IMG/VR virus record: IMGVR_UViG_3300025872_000287
Coordinates: 1-24,881 of that record
Direction: 5' to 3' (one strand)
DNA length: 24,881 bases
Source: a virus
Taxonomy: Duplodnaviria > Caudoviricetes
Made by a program: the position numbers and the translations under genes. Shown in pieces: positions 1-24,881 of this stretch; within the stretch, counting starts at the first letter, position 1; each line of letters starts with the position of its first letter. Below the pieces are notes generated by a model. It made no database searches, was not told where the DNA came from, and worked only from the letters and a program-made list of their open reading frames with translations.

Positions 1-32
1 ACCAATGACGCGGAATTCAATAAATCGCTCAT
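1..32 (-). CDS. 5' fragment of a fibre/lectin-like virion protein (runs off the left edge; probably the N-terminus of the gene at the right edge)
   Basis: ATG at 32, 1 nt after the stop of 34..189, translating MSDLLNSASLV. Only 11 codons are visible, so identity with the right-edge gene is inferred from gene order and family recollection. Confidence 0.55.
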   Translation of the reverse strand, partial: MSDLLNSASL

Positions 33-33
33 T

Positions 34-189
34 TTATAGATTATTCAATTTGTTCAACATACATGAAACACCTTCATAATACCCGCCATCGGCGGTGATT
101 CGTGATTTGTACGCAACAACGATGGGCCAACCTTGCCCCAAATATTGTGCGCTTCGAATGCCAATTCCTAATGCGCTGATTCCAATCAT
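34..189 (-). CDS. 51-aa putative virion adaptor peptide (not in ORF track)
   Basis: MIGISALGIGIRSAQYLGQGWPIVVAYKSRITADGGYYEGVSCMLNKLNNL*. It fills the gap between neighbours with 1-nt spacers on both sides, and its C-terminal half matches residues 37-61 of the 837-aa tail protein. Confidence 0.8.
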   Translation of the reverse strand: MIGISALGIGIRSAQYLGQGWPIVVAYKSRITADGGYYEGVSCMLNKLNNL

Positions 190-190
190 T

Positions 191-469
191 TTAATATGCT
201 ATTACGCTGCCGGTGCTAATTACAAAACCGGTGATTTTGCTGCCTTTGCCGGCGGGCAAATATGCGCCTTGTTGGAAAGTAATTCCGGACATGCCACGAG
301 CCGACAAAACATTTGTGGATGTTCCGTTTTCTTGGGTAACTGTGAACGATGTGAACACCGTGTCGGCCTGAACAACCAACGCGTCAAAACTTACGGATGT
401 AACCGTCCCCGATCCGAAATATTTAAATCCATCGTAACCGGCAACGATGTCAATTGATGCTTCTGCCAT
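191..469 (-). CDS. 92-aa beta-rich virion protein, possible head-spike base
   Basis: Start reassigned to ATG 469 (MAEASIDIVAG) because the longer ORF start overlaps a promoter-like region. G/S/T/V-rich beta-strand pattern; size and position resemble RcGTA spike base Rcc01079 (inference). Confidence 0.6.
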   Translation of the reverse strand: MAEASIDIVAGYDGFKYFGSGTVTSVSFDALVVQADTVFTSFTVTQENGTSTNVLSARGMSGITFQQGAYLPAGKGSKITGFVISTGSVIAY

Positions 470-476
470 AATGCTT

Positions 477-513
477 CGAAAATAACATCGTGACAATAAA
501 CATTTGCAACATT
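477..513 (-). promoter_or_regulatory. Putative late promoter: AATGTTGCAAATGT box, N15, TATTTTCG
   Basis: 14-bp box at 500-513 and a -7-like octamer at 484-477. The same architecture and spacing occur at 11385-11421. Confidence 0.6.
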
Positions 514-3026
514 TATTGAACAATCAGCCACCATTGCGTTCCATCGCTGATAACTGTGCATGTTTCAAAATTTGTATTCAAAACCTTTGTTGGGTTGCCA
601 TCAATATCAAACCCGCCGCCGGTGATGACAACCGAATGTGATGATGCAATTTTTTTGAAATAATATTTTTTACCTTTTGATATTGTCGGATCAGGTAAAT
701 CAACCGTAACCGTTCCGCCGGATGAATCGCACAAAATTAATTCATAACCATTGGTGATGGTGTGTGTCCCGGCCGTGTATGTGATGGGCGCATTGTGTTC
801 CTGAATCCGCCAATTAACCAATTCCGTTGAATCGTCATAACTCAACATCACCTCCCAACGGGTGTTCAATGTTGGCTGCGATGCGGGCGCGCCTTCGGCA
901 TCATTGACCAAATGTTCCAAAACTTGTTGCGGAACATTGGAAATCGCTGAATTCAAATTTGTCACCGCTGATTCAACATAATTCAAACGATTATTCAGAT
1001 TCCCGGTTTGTGATTGCTCGACTTTTAAACCTTCGCCGGATGATGTTGTCAAGGTATAAACTGGTGAAACACCAATCCATTCGCCATCCCATTGTTCCGA
1101 ACGGCAATTGTATTTGACCCCGTTCAAAACCCATGAATAATTGTCAAAATATAATGATTTGATTGCAGTCAATGACCCGGAATCAATCCATGTTCCACGA
1201 ACCACCGGAACAAAATTGGCGTAAATCGATGCCATTTGTAACCCCAACATTTTGGTGATTGTTCCGTGTGTAATTGAATCCCAACCGCCATACCAATCCG
1301 ATGCCAAAACATCGGTTGTGCCGTTAAACACCAACCAATTACCAATTCCGTATTTCAGGGAATCCGTATAATATGGCGATTCAATTGTGATGGGTGTTGA
1401 ATTCGCCAAATTGGCTGTGGATGCGGTGATGACCTCCGTGATGTCAAAAATATAATCCGCATTTTGATATGGTGACGCATCTGCAAATGAAACCTGAATT
1501 GAACCCCAAAAATCCTTCAACGCTGAATTGCCGTTTTTCCATTTGCCACCGCCCGAATAGGAAAGAATAACACCATGAACAAACATGTTGACTTCCAATC
1601 GGGTGTAACCGACCGGCGCGGTTGTCACCGACAATTCAAATTCCGATGTGATCCAACCGCCTTTGATGTCTTTGGTTGGCATGCGATACAATTGATTTCC
1701 CGAATTCCCCGATGCGGACCAATATCCATTCGCGTCCAAATAAACATAAGAGCCACCCGAATTCCGCAACCTGATATTGTAGTAAACATCGGTTGAATCT
1801 TCGACATACAAAACCCCACCCAATGTGTCGGATCGTTTGAATGATTTTGCCATAAAACGAATGCGCATCGGTGCGGCATCCGGTGATGTTCCGGTTGGAA
1901 TATCCGTGGCAATCAACGACAATGTTGATGATGATGTATTTGGGTAACTGCGCAACGCTTTTGCCACATTTTGACGATGCGTGTTTATTGTCACCGATTG
2001 TGCAGCTGGTTGATAGTACAATGATGGTTTTGCCATCCACAATGGCCGAACATCGTTGCCAATTGTTTGACGGTGTGAATATGTTGTCGTCCCGATATAT
2101 TGCCCGGTATACGAATATTGACGCAAATTGATTGATGTCGTGTTATTATACGCGTTGAATGGGATCACATAATACGCGCCATTTTCATGAGTGAATCGCG
2201 CCCCAAACATCAACAACACATTTTCCAACGCTTGTTTTGCTGAAATATAATTTGGTTCAATTTGCCATCCAACCGTGTCAATAACTTTGACATCCGTAAA
2301 CGGATCAAAATTTTCCAAAAATGTATATTCAAAAAGTTTATACATGTCGAACCCTAATCGGGCCGCATTATCTTCGTTTAACAATGTGCCATCATACAAA
2401 TATTGTTGTGGCGTTCCATTGACAACCCAATAATCCGACAAATCCAATGTGTCCAAACAACGGCGAAACAACTGGTTGATTGTGATGTATTCATCCGAAA
2501 ACCATGATGATTGTACTTTGTACCCATCCATCAATTCAAGGCCATCCACAGCCACCAAATCAATGATTGGTTTGCTTTGTATGGATTCGCGCAATCGCGT
2601 CATTTGGTCGGCCAATACGCGGCCAACATGAATCAATGAATCATTGCGATAAATCAACATCGCCCATGCGGTTTCGGCTTCGGTTTGAATGCCGACAAAA
2701 TCATCCAATGTATTTTGATCCGGCATCACCCATTGGGCAATTGCCCGTGATGGCCTGATAAAATTGGAATAAACTGAATCTGATTCGCCTTGCCTTTCAA
2801 TACTGATTCCATCACCGGCCAATGTTAATTCAACCGATGAATTCAATGCTTCTAATTTGTCAAAACAACATGTTTGGCCTTCAATATATCCGCCGGCTGA
2901 TTGAACCCGTGCATTGTATAAACGCGCAACAATTTCCGGTGTTGTTCCTGATGGTGAATCCCATAATTCAACCCGGTATTCAACATTTGTAATTGATAAA
3001 AACGAACCTTTGTAAATCCTTGCCAT
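513..3026 (-). CDS. Tail tip / baseplate hub protein (837 aa)
   Basis: Directly follows the tape measure gene (TAATG overlap). Beta-rich, with a short coiled coil (LNNRLNYVESAVTNLNSAI) and a C-terminal ...TVISDGTQW domain typical of tail appendage proteins. Confidence 0.75.
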   Translation of the reverse strand: MARIYKGSFLSITNVEYRVELWDSPSGTTPEIVARLYNARVQSAGGYIEGQTCCFDKLEALNSSVELTLAGDGISIERQGESDSVYSNFIRPSRAIAQWVMPDQNTLDDFVGIQTEAETAWAMLIYRNDSLIHVGRVLADQMTRLRESIQSKPIIDLVAVDGLELMDGYKVQSSWFSDEYITINQLFRRCLDTLDLSDYWVVNGTPQQYLYDGTLLNEDNAARLGFDMYKLFEYTFLENFDPFTDVKVIDTVGWQIEPNYISAKQALENVLLMFGARFTHENGAYYVIPFNAYNNTTSINLRQYSYTGQYIGTTTYSHRQTIGNDVRPLWMAKPSLYYQPAAQSVTINTHRQNVAKALRSYPNTSSSTLSLIATDIPTGTSPDAAPMRIRFMAKSFKRSDTLGGVLYVEDSTDVYYNIRLRNSGGSYVYLDANGYWSASGNSGNQLYRMPTKDIKGGWITSEFELSVTTAPVGYTRLEVNMFVHGVILSYSGGGKWKNGNSALKDFWGSIQVSFADASPYQNADYIFDITEVITASTANLANSTPITIESPYYTDSLKYGIGNWLVFNGTTDVLASDWYGGWDSITHGTITKMLGLQMASIYANFVPVVRGTWIDSGSLTAIKSLYFDNYSWVLNGVKYNCRSEQWDGEWIGVSPVYTLTTSSGEGLKVEQSQTGNLNNRLNYVESAVTNLNSAISNVPQQVLEHLVNDAEGAPASQPTLNTRWEVMLSYDDSTELVNWRIQEHNAPITYTAGTHTITNGYELILCDSSGGTVTVDLPDPTISKGKKYYFKKIASSHSVVITGGGFDIDGNPTKVLNTNFETCTVISDGTQWWLIVQ

Positions 3027-4864
3027 TATCCGCGCCGTGAATCTTTATTGTATCTTTCCAAAACGATGGCCAAATCGCGTCCGCTGATGTGCGTTTGCGC
3101 AACATAACCGGATGATTGTTCGGGCTTCATCAATGTTTTTAATTTGTCCAAAGGTGCAATGACCTCCGGGTTGCTGCGCGCGCCGGGATATTCACCCATC
3201 AAACCCAATGTTGGTCCGCTTACAATACCACCATCGGCAAACGCGGTCACGCTTGGGCCTTGTTTCATTTGGTTTGCCACCGCCGTACCCAATGCAACCA
3301 TCGCAATACCGGCTGCAACCGCAACTTGTGGTTGGATAAATGCGGTTTGAAATTTTTGAACGCTGATTCCATACGCAATCAACATTTTACCGACTGTTTT
3401 GACAAAATTGCCCAATTGGCCAACAACTGATTGAACAAACCCCTCAATGCCATTGCCTTGACCGGACAATTGATTTCCCAACGCTTCGCCCAATGATATT
3501 GCAATATCTTCACCCAATCGTTCAACCGCCATTGCCATGTCGGTCATCAATTTGTCGAAATCCTGAACAATTTGCGACCGGCTTTTGGGATCAATTTGAA
3601 CTTGAACCAAAACGGGCGCAACGGCCGTCCCGCCAATCAGATTTGCACCGGTTAATTGTTTTAAATCTTCGGCCGCTTTCTTTTTTGCTTTTTCACCACC
3701 TTCAAAACGCTTTTTGTCCAACCACTCAATCAAATCGGCCTCAACTTTTTTGACTTCTTCTGCGCTTTTTTTAATTTCAGCCAATGCAGTTTTTCGCCTT
3801 TGGCTTTGTTTTTTTGCCGCTTCGGAATCCAATTTGGCTTGTTTGTCGGTCGCTTCTTTGTTTATCGCTTCAATGTTTTTTTGATACGATTTTTCAAGGT
3901 ATTCAAGTTCGGTCAACTTTGCCGTTGCGGCTTGAATCTTTGTTTTGATTGCGGCCCTATCTTCTTCGCCTTCTGCGCGTGTCAAATCATCAAACAACAA
4001 TCGCATGTTGTCGTTGTATTTTTTGCGCATTCTTTGCGTTTCTTCTAAACGGCGTTTATTCGTTTCCAATTCCGTTTCGCCCAATTCTTGAATCTTTGTG
4101 GCAAAATCACGGATTTGTTTGTTGTATTCGGATTGTTGTTTTTGCGCCTCCTTGACTTTTTCATTCACCCCATCCAAACCATCCGAAAACGCATAAATGG
4201 CGGCAACGGCTGCGCCAATGGCAACCGTGGCAATAACAAATGGATTGGCCAAAAACTTTGTTAACCCACCAAATTGGGATTGCAAATCTTTGACTTGCAT
4301 GACGGCCGCGCTGAAATTCAATGCCGCGTTCAAACCCATCAATGTGTTGCGCAACGCTTTGTTGTCGTCTGCGACAATTGCGATAATTGAACTAACTGAT
4401 GAAAATGATGTGGCCAACCCATTCAATGCGGCGCGTGTTCCACCCAATGTTTGATTCGTAATTCCCAATTGTTGGGTGAATCCTTGTTTTTTTGCAGTCA
4501 ATTCAGAAACGGCGATTGACTGGTCTTTGATTGCCGCTTTGGTTTGTTCGATTTCCTGACGAACTCGCTTTTGACCCTGAACATCCATTTTCGACATGGT
4601 GTCACGCTTTTGGCGCAACTTTTCCAATTCCATCATGAATTCACGGGTGATTTGTTTTTGTTCGTCAATTTCGGCCGTGACGGCTGCAATCTTTTGGCGC
4701 AATTGGCCCGACCCCAATGATTGTTCAATGGCTTGACCGGCTTTGTTTGCGCTTTGCTGCATTTTGGCCGATGACTTTTCCATCGTATCGGCCGCGGCCT
4801 TCACATCTCTATTGAATAGATCCGTGACCGCATTTAAAACAATATTAATCGCACTTAATGCCAT
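3026..4864 (-). CDS. Tape measure protein (612 aa)
   Basis: Long Ala/Gln/Lys-rich helical protein with hydrophobic stretches and a C-terminal FADGGIVSGPTLGLMGE..GA..NPEVIAPL signature; located in the tail module. Confidence 0.92.
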   Translation of the reverse strand: MALSAINIVLNAVTDLFNRDVKAAADTMEKSSAKMQQSANKAGQAIEQSLGSGQLRQKIAAVTAEIDEQKQITREFMMELEKLRQKRDTMSKMDVQGQKRVRQEIEQTKAAIKDQSIAVSELTAKKQGFTQQLGITNQTLGGTRAALNGLATSFSSVSSIIAIVADDNKALRNTLMGLNAALNFSAAVMQVKDLQSQFGGLTKFLANPFVIATVAIGAAVAAIYAFSDGLDGVNEKVKEAQKQQSEYNKQIRDFATKIQELGETELETNKRRLEETQRMRKKYNDNMRLLFDDLTRAEGEEDRAAIKTKIQAATAKLTELEYLEKSYQKNIEAINKEATDKQAKLDSEAAKKQSQRRKTALAEIKKSAEEVKKVEADLIEWLDKKRFEGGEKAKKKAAEDLKQLTGANLIGGTAVAPVLVQVQIDPKSRSQIVQDFDKLMTDMAMAVERLGEDIAISLGEALGNQLSGQGNGIEGFVQSVVGQLGNFVKTVGKMLIAYGISVQKFQTAFIQPQVAVAAGIAMVALGTAVANQMKQGPSVTAFADGGIVSGPTLGLMGEYPGARSNPEVIAPLDKLKTLMKPEQSSGYVAQTHISGRDLAIVLERYNKDSRRG

Positions 4865-5951: not shown

Positions 5952-5959
5952 CGAATATA
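5952..5959 (-). promoter_or_regulatory. Putative -7 element TATATTCG, 4 nt before the chaperone ATG
   Basis: One mismatch from the Bacteroidota TAnnTTTG consensus; the same variant precedes the portal and 92-aa genes. No upstream box is visible here. Confidence 0.45.
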
Positions 5960-5975
5960 CGCAACAAATTCAAAA

Positions 5976-6407
5976 TTAAATTGTTCCAACGGTCAATGCG
6001 CCCGTCCCCTGAATTGATGCAGTGAATGTCGCAACATCGTTTTGTGGGGCGGTCAAATTTAATTCGTTGAAAAATGCTGATCCGCTCAATTTCAAATCGC
6101 CGCTAACATTGGATGTCATCACGATTGTCACGGATGTGCCGGCCAACAAATCGGTGATGATTTCTTTCCAGCTGATGCCCGCGCCAACGCTTGCATCTTC
6201 TTCGAACATACCTTCAACACTCATGGTGTACCCGTATTCGCCCGCGATGTATTCTTTCGCACCGGCTGAATCCTTGTTAGTGGTTTCAATCATGTCTTTG
6301 GTGATTGAAAAATCGTTTGATGTCGCGTTTGCGATTTTGGTCAATGTGCCGCTGATGTCTTTGTAAATTGCAATCAGCGTTCCGTTGGTGATTCCTGTGC
6401 TTGGCAT
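5976..6407 (-). CDS. Major tail (tube) protein, TP901-1-like
   Basis: 143 aa; IETTNKDSAGAKEYIAG...SVEG and SGSAF....L.AP.NDVATFTASIQGTGAL motifs; A-rich leader. Confidence 0.9.
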   Translation of the reverse strand: MPSTGITNGTLIAIYKDISGTLTKIANATSNDFSITKDMIETTNKDSAGAKEYIAGEYGYTMSVEGMFEEDASVGAGISWKEIITDLLAGTSVTIVMTSNVSGDLKLSGSAFFNELNLTAPQNDVATFTASIQGTGALTVGTI

Positions 6408-6429
6408 AATATTATTTTTTTATTTTTTT

Positions 6430-6909
6430 TTATTTGGTTTGAAGGCCCGCGCGTTTGGCTTTGTCTGCCAAATGCGTTGTGACCAATTTGTTCATTGCCT
6501 GAATATATAAATTTTTGCCCGATTCAAATGCGGGTCGCATGAATGGTTTTGCCGGGCCGATGTTCTTTCCATATTTTGCGCCTGATGCGCTTGTTTTCTT
6601 TTTCCGGCTTGGTGTACGGTCGGCCGTTCCTTCTTCGATTAAATGGGCATGAAATCCCTTGTAAGGACCATAAACACGCGCGCCAATCAAACGGAATGCG
6701 CGACCCTTGCCACGGTTGTCGCGTTCAATAAATCCAATTGAATTGCGCAAATTGCCGGTTTTGACATTGATTTTCGCTTTTGCCAATGTTATAAATATGC
6801 GCCCGGCTTGCTCGATAAATTGACCCATAATGGGCGAATCAATTTGCAAATTGCGGAATTCATCAATTGCCAATTTGTTTTTCTGAAAATATGCCGTCGT
6901 TTTTGTCAT
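6430..6909 (-). CDS. HK97 gp10-like tail completion protein
   Basis: KTGNLRNSI, HAHLIEEGT and PAKPFMRPAF motifs. Confidence 0.88.
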   Translation of the reverse strand: MTKTTAYFQKNKLAIDEFRNLQIDSPIMGQFIEQAGRIFITLAKAKINVKTGNLRNSIGFIERDNRGKGRAFRLIGARVYGPYKGFHAHLIEEGTADRTPSRKKKTSASGAKYGKNIGPAKPFMRPAFESGKNLYIQAMNKLVTTHLADKAKRAGLQTK

Positions 6910-7226
6910 TGCACTAATTCAGTTTGAAGGCGTAAATACATGCGGCGTTCCAAATCCGCAATATTGATGATGTTGTAATATTTGGATTCCCAAAGAATGC
7001 GCATTTTGGTTGTGATGCCTGAATCGTATCGCATTGAAAATGTCACGGTTTGTTTTGCTTCGCGGCGGTCCGAATCAACCGATTCCGAACCCGATTCGCT
7101 TTCCTGAATCCTTGCCCATGGGGTTGAATAGGTCGACCATGATTGCAACTTTTCACCGGTGTTTGAATCGGTGGTTGTTGTAAATTGTTGAACTGTGACC
7201 AATTCATCCATCAATCCGGGGTTCAT
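6906..7226 (-). CDS. Head closure protein (SPP1 gp16-like)
   Basis: MNPGLMDELVT..Q, WARI and F.MRY..GITTKMRI.W..KYYNI motifs. Confidence 0.9.
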   Translation of the reverse strand: MNPGLMDELVTVQQFTTTTDSNTGEKLQSWSTYSTPWARIQESESGSESVDSDRREAKQTVTFSMRYDSGITTKMRILWESKYYNIINIADLERRMYLRLQTELVQ

Positions 7227-7882
7227 GATATAACGCTAATTTTGTAAGGGTCTAACAAATACTGAAAACCAAATTGAATCGGGTTGTTTTGAACACCAAC
7301 GGTGATGGCCATCCGGTTGTCATAATATTGACCAACCAACAACAATGCCGCATGTTTAATTGATGCCGGAAACAATGTGTCGGGGTTTACGCTTGTTGCG
7401 CTTGCCAGTTCAAAACCTTCGGTGATTTCAACAATGTATTTGATGACATCATCGGTCACGCTTGTTGGCGCGTTTTCAATAAATATGTTTCGTGAAAACA
7501 ACCCCATTGGATTTGGCGCGGTGATCCAATCAGCGGAATCAAATGCGGTGATGGCTTGGGAATCGTTTACATAAGAAACGGAATTCACCGCCAAAACGCG
7601 TGAATTAATGCGCAAATAATTACCGGACGGGATGTTTAACCCGTTCACGGGGTTAATCAGGGCCGGTTGACCGGTAAATCCATCAAAACCATATTTGGCC
7701 GTTCCTTTTCTTACCGTATAACCAATATATTGACCGCACGCATCCAATGCCATTGCAATCAATCCACCGATGTATGTGTCATCGGATGATGATGTCACGC
7801 GCAAATGCGTCTTTGCATCAGCGACCGAAATATAATCGGTTGCGGCGTGTGAAAATGCGGTGTAATTGCGTGCAACAAACAT
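7223..7882 (-). CDS. Head-tail connector/adaptor (gp6-like, long form)
   Basis: ISVADAKTHLRV....DDTYI..LI and PASIKHAALLLVGQYYDNR...LLDPY motifs. Confidence 0.9.
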   Translation of the reverse strand: MFVARNYTAFSHAATDYISVADAKTHLRVTSSSDDTYIGGLIAMALDACGQYIGYTVRKGTAKYGFDGFTGQPALINPVNGLNIPSGNYLRINSRVLAVNSVSYVNDSQAITAFDSADWITAPNPMGLFSRNIFIENAPTSVTDDVIKYIVEITEGFELASATSVNPDTLFPASIKHAALLLVGQYYDNRMAITVGVQNNPIQFGFQYLLDPYKISVIS

Positions 7883-7884
7883 GG

Positions 7885-8085
7885 TTATTCCGCATCCAAT
7901 GCGGTTTCAGGGTTAACGGGTTTTTTCTTTGCTTTGGGCTTTTCAACTACTTCTTCAATAACCAGTTCAACCGCCTCGGCCTCCAACAATAATTCCGCTT
8001 GTTTGGATTCCATTTCAACGATTTCGCCAATATTGTACGACAAATTAAATTTGCCCGATGGGTTAATCAAAAATTTCACTTTCAT
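7885..8085 (-). CDS. 66-aa conserved-position hypothetical protein after the capsid gene
   Basis: MKVKF...Y..GEIVEM....AELL...A pattern with a charged tail, as commonly found between capsid and connector genes. Confidence 0.75.
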   Translation of the reverse strand: MKVKFLINPSGKFNLSYNIGEIVEMESKQAELLLEAEAVELVIEEVVEKPKAKKKPVNPETALDAE

Positions 8086-8088
8086 GGC

Positions 8089-8154
8089 CGGTGGGCCAAA
8101 CAGTCAAGTTGACCCACCGTGTGCGAACTTTAATGCCCCCGCACGGGCAATTAA
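8089..8154 (-). ncRNA. Putative cis-acting structured RNA (H-type pseudoknot plus 11-bp hairpin)
   Basis: TGCCC/GGGCA stem; loop GTGCGG complementary to downstream TCGCAC; then CGGTGGGTCAA/TTGGCCCACCG. No U-tract. Confidence 0.55.
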
Positions 8155-11384: not shown

Positions 11385-11421
11385 CGAATTTATTATTTTG
11401 TGAATTAACATTTGCAACATT
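11385..11421 (-). promoter_or_regulatory. Putative late promoter: AATGTTGCAAATGT box, N15, TAAATTCG
   Basis: Box at 11408-11421; octamer at 11392-11385, 4 nt before the portal ATG at 11380. Confidence 0.6.
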
Positions 11422-14436: not shown

Positions 14437-14465
14437 CAAAGTTATATTAAAATTTCATCAAACAA
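14437..14465 (-). promoter_or_regulatory. Bacteroidota-type promoter TTG-N18-TAACTTTG, 4 nt before the HNH ATG
   Basis: Perfect TAnnTTTG at 14444-14437 in an AT-rich intergenic gap. Confidence 0.65.
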
Positions 14466-15362
14466 TTACAACATCTCATTGTCAACGCGTTCAATGGCTT
14501 TGAATATCTCCAACGCAACTTGTGGAACGATGGCATTGCCGTAACCTTTTATTGATTCTTGTCTCCAATTAGAAAAGGTAATGTTGTCCAATTGTCTGGG
14601 AATCCCATCATTTCCCCCACAAATCGGGGATTGAGTTGGGAATTTTTCCCATCGGTGTTCATTGTTGCCCAACTGCCCAAATCGTTCCGTTCCCCTCTCC
14701 CTCTTTTTTCCAATGCCTCCTTGCTTCCGCTTCCATTTTTGTCGCTGCATGTTGGTGTTGGTAGTAACCCCAGAATTGCAAAGTGTTCCAAATACATCGC
14801 CCTCGTTTCCCCTCCATATATCTCCTTGCGCTTCATCGTTTGTTCCTCGGTCACTTCGCGTGGGCTTGCATTTGGTGTTGGCAGCAACGAACCAAATTCG
14901 TTCGCGTTTGTGTGGCGCGTTGACACCGCACGCAGGTATAACAACGGGCGCGACTTGATACCCAAGATTCTCCAACTCAGCGCACACCTCGTCGAATACC
15001 AATCCCCCATTCCAATTAGTGAGTCCGCGAACATTTTCGCCCACCACGAAACGCGGGGCAATCTCGCGTATTGCTCGCAACATCTCCGGCCAAAGGTGGC
15101 GTTCGTCTTCTTTTCCGAGCCGTTTGCCGGCTGATGAATATGGTTGGCATGGGAATCCCCCAGTGAGAATGTCAATTGTGTTTGCATATTTTGTAAAATC
15201 TGATTTTGTTATGTCGTTAAATGATTCGGCCTTTGGCCAATAATGTTTCAATACTTTTTGCCCAAATGTATTCCATTCACAATGGAAAACATTTTCCCAT
15301 CCCATCCATTCCGCGGCTAAATCAAACCCGCCAATTCCTGAAAACAACGATCCGTGTTTCAT
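14466..15362 (-). CDS. C5 cytosine DNA methyltransferase, alpha chain (motifs I-VIII and X)
   Basis: FSGIGG (I), GFPCQ (IV), ENV (VI), RERIW (VIII) and GNAIV (X). No recognisable motif IX in this frame. Confidence 0.93.
   Translation of the reverse strand: MKHGSLFSGIGGFDLAAEWMGWENVFHCEWNTFGQKVLKHYWPKAESFNDITKSDFTKYANTIDILTGGFPCQPYSSAGKRLGKEDERHLWPEMLRAIREIAPRFVVGENVRGLTNWNGGLVFDEVCAELENLGYQVAPVVIPACGVNAPHKRERIWFVAANTKCKPTRSDRGTNDEAQGDIWRGNEGDVFGTLCNSGVTTNTNMQRQKWKRKQGGIGKKRERGTERFGQLGNNEHRWEKFPTQSPICGGNDGIPRQLDNITFSNWRQESIKGYGNAIVPQVALEIFKAIERVDNEML
14549..15187 (-). CDS. C5 methyltransferase beta chain nested in the +1 frame (putative TRD plus motif IX)
   Basis: 212 open codons inside alpha; two LLPTP modules; LNPRFVGEMMGFPDNWT resembles motif IX. 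The layout is as in M.EcoHK31I. Start codon uncertain. Confidence 0.78.
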   Translation of the reverse strand: MQTQLTFSLGDSHANHIHQPANGSEKKTNATFGRRCCEQYARLPRVSWWAKMFADSLIGMGDWYSTRCALSWRILGIKSRPLLYLRAVSTRHTNANEFGSLLPTPNASPREVTEEQTMKRKEIYGGETRAMYLEHFAILGLLPTPTCSDKNGSGSKEALEKRGRGERNDLGSWATMNTDGKNSQLNPRFVGEMMGFPDNWTTLPFLIGDKNQ

Positions 15363-23216: not shown

Positions 23217-23395
23217 TTGATGCGATTGATTTTTTTACTGTAATAAACCACCGCCAACAAACCCGAAATAAGACCAACAATGCCCACCACAAAGGTAAGG
23301 ATTGGCTGATAAGTTTGCGTGAAGGTGATAATTGCTGAACTGCCTGAAATGGCCGTGGCAATCGCCGCCGTGGTGTCATTATTAAATTTGTTCAT
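23213..23395 (-). CDS. 60-aa membrane protein (holin/antiholin-like)
   Basis: One or two hydrophobic helices and a basic C-terminus. Confidence 0.65.
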   Translation of the reverse strand: MNKFNNDTTAAIATAISGSSAIITFTQTYQPILTFVVGIVGLISGLLAVVYYSKKINRIK

Positions 23396-23759
23396 TTGGT
23401 GTTGGGATTACGCAAAAAGGTGAATCGGGGAATTTCTCACAATACCCTTTTAAATAAAGTGAATCATCCCCACTAAAAGTATGAATCCCCATTGGGTCTG
23501 GCCATACCTCATACGGAGTAAACTCCACGGGAACCTCTGAATAGAAAAGAATGTCAACCGCCCACTTGTCCGACTGCTTAACGCATACGGGTTTGTCATC
23601 AACTTGCCCCCACTCCAAACAAATAAATCCAATTTCAACAACTGCGCAATCTTTCCAACTTGTCACGGTTTCCCCGCTTGGCGTGGTTGTGGTTTGTTGT
23701 ATGTCTTTTTGAAGTGTTGCCCATTCGGTAGGGGTGAACTCGAATTTAGAAAATTTCAT
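23382..23759 (-). CDS. 125-aa fibre-associated hypothetical protein
   Basis: Directly downstream of the fibre gene; F.KFEF...W, VVEIG, WAVDIL and P.P.GIHTFSG patterns. Confidence 0.7.
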   Translation of the reverse strand: MKFSKFEFTPTEWATLQKDIQQTTTTPSGETVTSWKDCAVVEIGFICLEWGQVDDKPVCVKQSDKWAVDILFYSEVPVEFTPYEVWPDPMGIHTFSGDDSLYLKGYCEKFPDSPFCVIPTPNEQI

Positions 23760-23760
23760 T

Positions 23761-24881
23761 TTATAAGGTTGTTAATGCGATGCATTCTGCATCTGTTAAT
23801 GATGTTTTGAAATTAACTATTTGTTTAATTTGGAAATCTAAGTATGGAGTACCCGCCTCTGAACCTAAATAAACTGCAGTCAAAGAAAGTGGAACGCTTC
23901 CGCTTGTATCTGAACCTATTAAAACCCCGTTTTGAAATAATCTAAAATCATTGTTTTTGTAAGTTACTGCAATTTTTCTATTTTGCCCATAGGTGTACGA
24001 ACTGCCAATGATTACTGCTTGGGTTACACCGCCAGAACTTGCAACTAACAAAGGCGCGCCCGTACTTCCGATTTCAATTTGAACCCTATTTGCGTTTGTC
24101 GTGTCGCTTAATTGAAAAGGTACTGTCGATGCTGCGCCAAGTTGTGCGCCTTCAAAAAACAATGTTCCCTCCGTCTGCCCTATCAAACTACTTATCCCCG
24201 TCTTAAAACAAGCATCCGCAACCCTTGTGGCACTTGCTGATGTGGTTGGGATGTAGGATGTGACATAACTTGACGCTTCACACTGAAATCCCCAAACATA
24301 AACTTGTTTATTGCTTCCCGTGTAGGTTTCGCTTCCCGTGTCATCGGCTAAACCAATACGGAAGTTTGGCGAACCACTTGCCGCCATTGTGCGAGTATAA
24401 ACAATTCTATACCATCCGTTTCCAACACTTGTAATTGATGCCGTGACATCGCCCGTTGAACCTAAAATTGTACCATTTTGAATGTCGTAATCAACATATT
24501 GTGATGTAGAACCATTGTAAATGTTTACCGTCATATATTGACGGCTTATGTATTTGGCATAAAACGAAATTGTATACGCCGTACTATTTGCAAAGGTTAT
24601 ACCTTGATAAATCCAATGTTGTGTACTTGATGCCGTGCCATCATCCAAAAGGTCTGCATTTTGTGTGCCGTCTGGGCTTATGCCTTGATTTGCGGTAATT
24701 GTCAAATTGTTAGAAGCCCACGCACCATTGTCTACTTGTTCAGAATAAAGCAAAATATTCGTTGATTGTTTCTCCAACAACAAACTCGGACACCCGCCCC
24801 CGCCATTTTGGTAGGTTAGGCGTGGTACATTTAAGCGGTCGGTAGTGGGGAAATAGGGTTTTGCGGTTGAGCCGATGTTTA
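23761..24881 (-). CDS. Fibre/receptor-binding protein with carbohydrate-binding and LamG/ConA-like domains (5' end beyond the window)
   Basis: The frame is open to the right edge (NIGSTAKPYFPTTDRLNVPRLTYQNGGGGCPSLLLEK...); NILLYSE, GNGWYRI, TSYIPTT..SATRVAD and KIAVTY......FQNG...LTDAECIALT motifs. Confidence 0.78.
   Translation of the reverse strand, partial: NIGSTAKPYFPTTDRLNVPRLTYQNGGGGCPSLLLEKQSTNILLYSEQVDNGAWASNNLTITANQGISPDGTQNADLLDDGTASSTQHWIYQGITFANSTAYTISFYAKYISRQYMTVNIYNGSTSQYVDYDIQNGTILGSTGDVTASITSVGNGWYRIVYTRTMAASGSPNFRIGLADDTGSETYTGSNKQVYVWGFQCEASSYVTSYIPTTSASATRVADACFKTGISSLIGQTEGTLFFEGAQLGAASTVPFQLSDTTNANRVQIEIGSTGAPLLVASSGGVTQAVIIGSSYTYGQNRKIAVTYKNNDFRLFQNGVLIGSDTSGSVPLSLTAVYLGSEAGTPYLDFQIKQIVNFKTSLTDAECIALTTL

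Follow-up and report, generated by a model that had tools for sequence, protein, structure and literature searches.

Receptor-binding proteins are usually thought to have a single attachment site, which is set by their own N-terminal anchor. The stretch of DNA analyzed here (the window, 24,881 bases) raises the question of how a lectin fiber that is encoded without such an anchor is held on the virion and whether it is held in more than one place. An initial annotation had proposed that a 51-amino-acid (aa) protein encoded between a small spike base and the fiber is a two-ended adaptor, that its C-terminal motif completes the N-terminal domain of the fiber in trans, and that a second copy of the motif in a tail-tip protein lets the same lectin dock on the tail. 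We consider it probable that the window encodes an RcGTA-type split spike in which a released 25- to 28-residue helix-strand-helix tag binds a free lectin fiber in trans. The fiber would then dock wherever the tag is displayed, namely, on the adaptor, held in a base pentamer at the capsid vertices, and in a loop of an 837-aa protein that is likely the tail tip.

Family searches of its open reading frames (ORFs) identified the record as a minus-strand HK97-type siphophage with genes for terminase, portal, protease, capsid, neck, tail tube, and a tape-measure-like protein. Since DnaB helicase, methylase, and HNH genes lie beside this full structural module, the contig, in contrast to RcGTA, is not a gene transfer agent. 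Most of the sequencing runs that hold at least 0.9 of the stretch are freshwater metagenomes; in an RNA run (X15), the stretch was covered in pieces only and no transcript was seen, and none of the reads of a second run (X21) fell on it. Given that the sole cultured matches to the fiber N-terminal domain are Nonlabens phages, the host is likely a member of the Bacteroidota. A scan of GTDB with alignment A4 gave one 10-residue match, and a prophage host was therefore not found. The features on which the argument draws are the following.

1..32, minus strand: first 10 codons of the free (anchorless) head-spike fiber; the contig end cuts the gene, and the full-length fibers of relatives (534 to 605 aa) have the same start
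34..189, minus strand: candidate two-ended adaptor, 51 aa
37..111, minus strand: docking tag, adaptor copy (aa 27 to 51), Y/F-x-x-R-V-x-x-D-G-G-x-x-E-x-x-x-C
154..189, minus strand: aliphatic-Gly "plug" (aa 1 to 12), likely bound by the spike base
191..469, minus strand: 92-aa jellyroll protein (as modeled), likely the capsid-vertex spike base
499..511, minus strand: 13-nucleotide (nt) cis element TGTTGYAAWTGTT, with further copies at 11407..11419 (portal) and 14461..14473 (HNH)
513..3026, minus strand: 837-aa protein (P0003), likely the tail tip or hub by position
2835..2930, minus strand: 32-codon in-frame insertion with the second tag (aa 37 to 61, 2844..2918)
23761..24879, minus strand: C-terminal 372 aa of the same fiber, with a GTA spike-fiber domain (NF048003, E = 1.5e-46) and LamG (Laminin_G_3)

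The candidate adaptor, its putative base, and the probable tail protein

The 51-aa ORF has the length, start, and end that had been reported for it, and it is separated by 1 nt from the base gene on one side and by 1 nt from the fiber ATG (at 32) on the other. The ungapped match of the adaptor C terminus to the 837-aa protein was likewise reproduced, with 11 identities over 25 residues. Plain BLASTP comparison of the two proteins missed this match, which has a BLOSUM62 score of 62, with the next-best real match at 35. None of 2,000 shuffled queries scored as high against the 837-aa protein (the best reached 54), nor did any of 200 against the six-frame window. With a tag profile built from 194 instances, the window yielded these two copies and no others (E = 1.7e-13 and 1e-5; the next match had an E value of 0.35).

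The adaptor is conserved, as a relative is encoded in 168 stretches, and it is under purifying selection as judged from an uncorrected pN/pS proportion of 0.31 over 46 distinct 51-codon homologs. The same uncorrected proportions are 0.20 for the tag (aa 24 to 51) and 0.76 for the plug, which is the least constrained part of the adaptor. Within the plug, G8 and G10 are invariant and L7 and I9 are kept in at least 90% (alignment A2). Pfam, PHROGs, and NCBIfam gave no match for P0001, P0002, or P0003, cultured phages gave no tblastn match to P0001, P0090, or the L171 protein, and PDB sequence searches with the base, adaptor, and tail-protein alignments returned nothing significant.

A spike-base-like fold had been expected for the 92-aa protein, and its AF2 model (pLDDT, 87.6) is an all-beta sandwich whose best fold matches are jellyrolls or cupins. 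An 84-aa chain of the RcGTA capsid entry (6tb9), which from the contents of that entry would be Rcc01079, ranked second among 48,161 against the model, with a modest score that was tied with cupins, including the CENP-C cupin (Z = 5.4, rmsd 4.5, 75 aligned, 12% identity); an 87-aa Carin1 capsid chain (8cjz_h) followed with a Z of 4.7. The modeled fold therefore fits a spike base. Since a Foldseek search of the PDB gave no match at E ≤ 0.001 and the base alignment matched no PDB sequence, specific homology to the RcGTA base would rest on the fold, the gene order, and the plug taken together. Searches of BFVD at E ≤ 0.001 and of the ESM Atlas returned only uncharacterized phage proteins and unnamed viral clusters, respectively.

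According to the accessible text of PMC7296036, the RcGTA base is a pentameric jellyroll that grips residues 2 to 10 of the fiber Rcc01080, a peptide of repeated leucines or isoleucines separated by glycines, which the plug of the adaptor resembles. The window shares with the RcGTA head spike (Rcc01079 and Rcc01080; PDB 6TB9), as described in the accessible text of PMC7296036 and PMC10218006, a small jellyroll gene upstream of the fiber, an aliphatic-Gly N-terminal peptide, and a homologous fiber domain. In contrast to RcGTA, the plug here is on a separate 51-aa protein, and it is on the fiber in fused relatives only (see below). The fiber here also has an extra PSGYK/LamG docking domain, and a tag links plug and fiber and recurs in other virion proteins.

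The tag could bind the fiber while the base and plug act otherwise, or while the adaptor serves as an assembly chaperone, with the fiber being mainly a tail appendage. Such a reading would be consistent with the modest fold match of the base and with the many adaptors that have WG-repeat or other N termini. However, an (L/I)G(L/I)G N terminus comes after the base gene in split, fused, and third-class loci alike, the RcGTA fiber binds its base via such a peptide (accessible text of PMC7296036), and the fiber is a clear Rcc01080 homolog, so that we regard a spike lacking a head anchor as quite improbable and favor adaptor docking at the capsid vertices.

The base, adaptor, and fiber genes had been credited with a promoter-like element of their own, and this claim held in part. 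The 13-mer TGTTGYAAWTGTT does precede the base gene, but it also precedes the portal and HNH genes, in each case 26 to 29 nt before the ATG on the coding strand, so it is a phage-wide element rather than one private to the three genes. Consensus scans were at chance, with 4 sigma-70 sites found versus 2.5 ± 1.5 expected and no exact match to TAnnTTTG upstream. Given that the pattern was derived from its three sites, a shuffle count would be circular, and the constant spacing is the evidence that points to TGTTGYAAWTGTT as a likely late promoter or regulator site. In a sister clade, a second upstream type, TTTGTTAAC...TTGTAAATTG, is found in place of TGTTGYAAWTGTT.

The 837-aa protein, for which no family or PDB match was found, is encoded directly after the tape-measure-like gene (phrog_1538, E = 0.001), and from this position it is likely the tail tip or hub. 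Its tag lies within an insertion that appears as a 96-nt indel relative to the close homologs in L048, L041, and L037.

The fiber gene and its split and fused arrangements

The 372-aa frame at the right end of the window is 47 to 68% identical to the fibers of relatives, from residue ~182 to 225 to their ends. Since this frame matches the C-terminal part of the fibers whose start lies at the left end, we infer that the genome is circularly permuted and that ~180 to 220 fiber codons are missing between the contig ends; an end repeat was not found on the record. The window fiber matches NF048003, the GTA head-spike fiber family, far above the cutoff, as does the fiber of L001, and the fiber profile matched Rcc01080 of RcGTA (6tb9_F3) with an E value of 1.1e-42. 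By these profile comparisons, the fiber is an Rcc01080 homolog. Its fold matches are CBM- and LamG-like only.

Several further observations concern the fiber gene. Its middle domains are hypervariable (29 to 75% identity within alignment A7), with conserved N- and C-terminal parts (L001 to L146), and the base and adaptor are nearly identical in close relatives, in contrast to the variable fiber middle, which suggests module exchange. Fiber frames end at the same WGAQxE motif in L021 (6440-7492), L027, L126, and L135 and also in L061, L065, L078, and L034; in the first four, a 174-aa HNH-homing-endonuclease-like protein comes next, possibly reflecting an intron or endonuclease insertion in the fiber gene. 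A 125-aa gene without a Pfam match follows the fiber in the window (23382-23759, minus strand) and may encode a fiber chaperone or partner; similar proteins come after the fibers in most related loci and in the cultured phage P12024L (gp11).

Three arrangements come after the base gene in relatives: a 48- to 52-aa adaptor with a free fiber, a fused protein, and a different fiber that starts with GLGLG. The fused form reads plug-tag-LLxxASLLLIPSGYK and was found in L035, L037, L038, L042, and L044 and in many representatives, and the 51-mer is collinear with its first ~50 aa. The initial annotation had suggested that the motif is fused directly in front of LL.SASL-type fibers in related phages; we found it both fused directly before such (LLxxASL) fibers and encoded beside them. 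An AF2 model of the fused form (pLDDT, 85.9) has residues 1 to 14 (the plug) disordered, followed by a helix (14 to 31), a short strand, and another helix. The fused relatives (the five loci above and P0072 to P0074) and the DPDAQAF-type head fibers (L041 and L048) have the same base gene in the same position as the window, with the tag present in cis in the fused form. In both, however, the spike fiber is one polypeptide and the tail proteins are without the insertion. Fibers of the third class (L041, 6281-6973; L043; L048; L059) combine the GLGLG start with a different helical N-domain downstream of the same base gene, and they have a weak RVxxxGG similarity to the tag (hhalign probability, 20%; E = 0.0012).

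Of the 128 junction instances, 34 have the fiber frame starting immediately after the adaptor frame, without a spacer and in phase with it, as would be expected if stop readthrough or frameshifting joined the 51-aa frame and the fiber into a single product. However, the spacers of -4, 0, 1, 2, 3, and 4 nt cover all three frames, the length of the A run varies in an independent run, and many free fibers are far from any adaptor. Joining by readthrough is thus refuted as a general rule, and we give it hardly any credence relative to two proteins that meet in trans.

The form of the spike covaries with the insertion in the tail protein. Among 65 dereplicated loci (duplicates, loci without a complete 837-aa-type gene, and loci with a cut downstream gene having been removed), 55 combined a split spike with the tail insert, 6 had a fused spike and no insert, 3 had another fiber and no insert, and a single locus (L108) was split without an insert. 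On a quick, unfinished tree, the rows without an insert occupy at least three distinct positions, not counting L108. These loci recombine, in that L122 groups with the insertless L037, L041, and L043.

A motif-blind sample of 120 PSGYK fibers, which was not dereplicated and in which 40 loci span at most 650 bases, contained 117 free and 3 fused fibers. A separate tag gene was found nearby in the fetched DNA for 95 of the 117 free fibers and for none of the 3 fused ones. When 13 of the 22 tagless loci were searched as whole records, 7 had tags, including all 3 of the records that are at least 90% complete; the six whole records that were still tagless are 15 to 46% complete. Fused-fiber records (6/6, one of them complete) were without any tag beyond that of the fiber itself. 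A free fiber was encoded in 11 of the 14 records with tagged tail proteins and in 8/8 of those with at least 90% completeness.

The predicted complex of tag and fiber

We folded the tag of the window's tail protein (36 aa) with the complete free fiber of L013, a relative with a base gene identical to that of the window and an adaptor at 96% identity. Tail-protein rows (26) and adaptor rows (18) were combined in the partner alignment, and the folding alignments left out the short fibers of the window clade (351 to 416 aa) as early-stopping. The complex had an ipSAE of 0.91 in 3/3 runs, versus 0.03 for the best of three controls, with at least 95% of the contacts common to the runs. In calibration, 116 of 157 solved pairs and 2 of 215 mismatched pairs attained the ipSAE mark, figures that apply only roughly to the alignments used. 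These models support, for the tail copy, the interface between fiber and motif that had been proposed. Since tag and fiber are halves of one natural domain, the score speaks to their compatibility rather than to their use in the virion.

The pLDDT of the tag was 90 with the fiber and 28 with an unrelated protein, the latter suggesting that the tag folds on binding. In the predicted interface, G19 to G23 of the tag (GGYIEG) face S15 to Y17 of the fiber (SGY), and Y10, R13, and V14 of the tag face Y23 and Q25 of the fiber; that is, the GGxxEG of the tag is predicted to pair with the PSGY of the fiber. These residues are conserved columns on both the tag and the fiber sides, and PDB sequence matches begin at fiber profile position 76 or later, past the predicted interface.

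The split spike that we favor would assemble as follows. Base subunits would pentamerize on the capsid vertices and grip the plug of the adaptor, by analogy with RcGTA, and the tag of the adaptor would capture one fiber by completing its N-terminal domain, as in the predicted complex. The tag looped out of the 837-aa protein, the tail location of which we infer from gene position, would capture more fibers, so that a single lectin would be displayed at both ends of the particle and would mediate reversible attachment to glycans. It is likely that one lectin is hung on both the head and the tail. Sequence comparison establishes the split and fused forms, the homology of the fiber to Rcc01080, the in-frame insertion in the tail protein, the protein-level conservation of the tag, and the finding that extra tags occur together with free fibers.

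Distribution of the tag and relation to known systems

A search of 1.84 billion representatives with the tag profile gave 188 matches at E ≤ 0.001. The 150 matches listed included one-, two-, and three-copy proteins (41 to 134 aa), fused fibers, and long proteins with internal copies, besides a few spurious repeat proteins. Multitag adaptors typically precede free fibers (60 loci obtained with a two-copy DNA pattern). Tags were also found in a head-closure protein (phrog_25), at the C terminus of a tail-fiber-like protein, and in several large tail-region proteins, and in phrog_31097, a family of unknown function, the profile includes the tag at approximately positions 25 to 50. We estimate that ~770 stored IMG/VR stretches match one strict fiber pattern. 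Judged from these sequences, the tag is a portable module that occurs in virion proteins of several kinds and also in multicopy adaptors, which goes beyond the single tail copy noted originally.

Selfish DNA can insert in frame, as exemplified by Rickettsia palindromic elements, and the repeated in-frame insertion of the motif at unrelated sites is what such a mobile element would produce. However, third codon positions were the least conserved in 190 tag DNA instances (0.47 versus 0.65 and 0.71), 40 sampled instances had no consistent hairpin (mean fold z, -0.48; one at -3.6), and the presence of the tag tracks the state of the fiber. A selfish origin is thereby largely refuted and has a very slight probability; the codon data indicate that the tag is conserved at the protein level.

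Plain gene fission, in which the 51-mer serves to reconstitute the head spike in trans while the other copies are tolerated duplications that bind the fiber rarely or never, would account for the collinearity of the 51-mer with the N terminus of fused fibers, for L108 (split without a tail insert), and for a tail-protein insertion that is less constrained than the adaptor tag (pN/pS of 0.40 versus 0.20). On the other hand, R, G, E, and C are kept in the tag copies with all synonymous codons used, and copies occur in unrelated proteins and at several positions (~26 to 29, 48, 71, 77, and 93) within one family of 130- to 165-aa proteins. Extra copies are also absent from the six fused-fiber records described above, and the two tags of P12024L are only in other proteins. 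We therefore regard gene fission with idle copies as unlikely and retain the reading in which each displayed tag can dock a fiber.

P12024L (L336, NC_018272.1) is a cultured Nonlabens phage that was found through the fiber N-domain search only. Like the window, it combines a free fiber having the same N-domain (gp10) with two tagged proteins (gp05 and gp09); the three genes, at 3031-3408, 5953-6552, and 6549-8147, are all annotated as hypothetical. Neither a 51-aa adaptor nor a base homolog was detected in P12024L.

These distributions incline us, with somewhat less assurance than for the spike itself, toward a broader reading in which a fold-completing tag of ~28 residues serves aquatic Bacteroidota phages as a general virion plug-in code. 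The tag would have been split off from the head fiber and then inserted repeatedly in head-closure, tail-fiber-like, tail-tip, and other proteins and, in one to three copies, in vertex adaptors, so that one swappable lectin would decorate the whole particle with a valency set by the number of tags. Such a code would be a phage counterpart of dockerin-cohesin pairing and a natural case of split-protein display.

In the cohesin-dockerin system of cellulosomes, a short repeated scaffold module brings in a carbohydrate-active partner, with a valency that depends on the number of copies. The likeness is one of logic only. The peptide here is predicted to complete the fold of its partner and would do so on a virion, and Pfam gave no dockerin or cohesin match for P0001, P0002, P0003, P0069, or P0090. 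The CBA120 tailspike proteins (TSPs) and K1-5 gp37 hold receptor-binding proteins on folded docking domains that are confined to the tail. Both those systems and the present one use dedicated docking modules, but here one short tag occurs in head, neck, and tail proteins. In the accessible literature that was searched, neither a split head spike nor the tag was described.

If the tag works as predicted, abundant aquatic phages uncouple the anchor from the lectin, exchange of one hypervariable fiber gene would simultaneously alter glycan recognition at both the head and the tail, and an insertion of ~90 nt would be enough to create a new binding site. Many micro-genes of 45 to 135 aa, as well as structural-protein inserts that had been unexplained, would also gain a role. 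The tag could be exploited in protein display as part of a short, naturally occurring tag-catcher pair, and its action is testable in cultured P12024L.

A rule of one tag per fiber gene did not hold when counted: there were 23 one-tag/one-fiber, 11 two-tag/one-fiber, and 6 two-tag/two-fiber cases. Of 17 two-tag adaptors, only 6 accompany two fiber genes, and these 6 belong to a single lineage (L149, L150, L174, L182, L185, and L202), in which the two-tag adaptor is followed by two different free fibers and a branched spike is a candidate arrangement. In many tag adaptors, Trp-Gly-rich repeats take the place of the plug at the N terminus (L324 to L334, L157, L164, and L203; P0129 and P0173). 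No base homolog was detected beside these adaptors, and the repeats are possibly a second capsid-anchoring peptide. Finally, the tag occurs at the C terminus of small proteins rich in Cys (CxC...RKCC or similar) in L162 (3-341), L166 (3546-3848), L176 (3001-3291), and L201 (130-375), and in the first three of these loci such proteins are encoded just upstream of the base gene.
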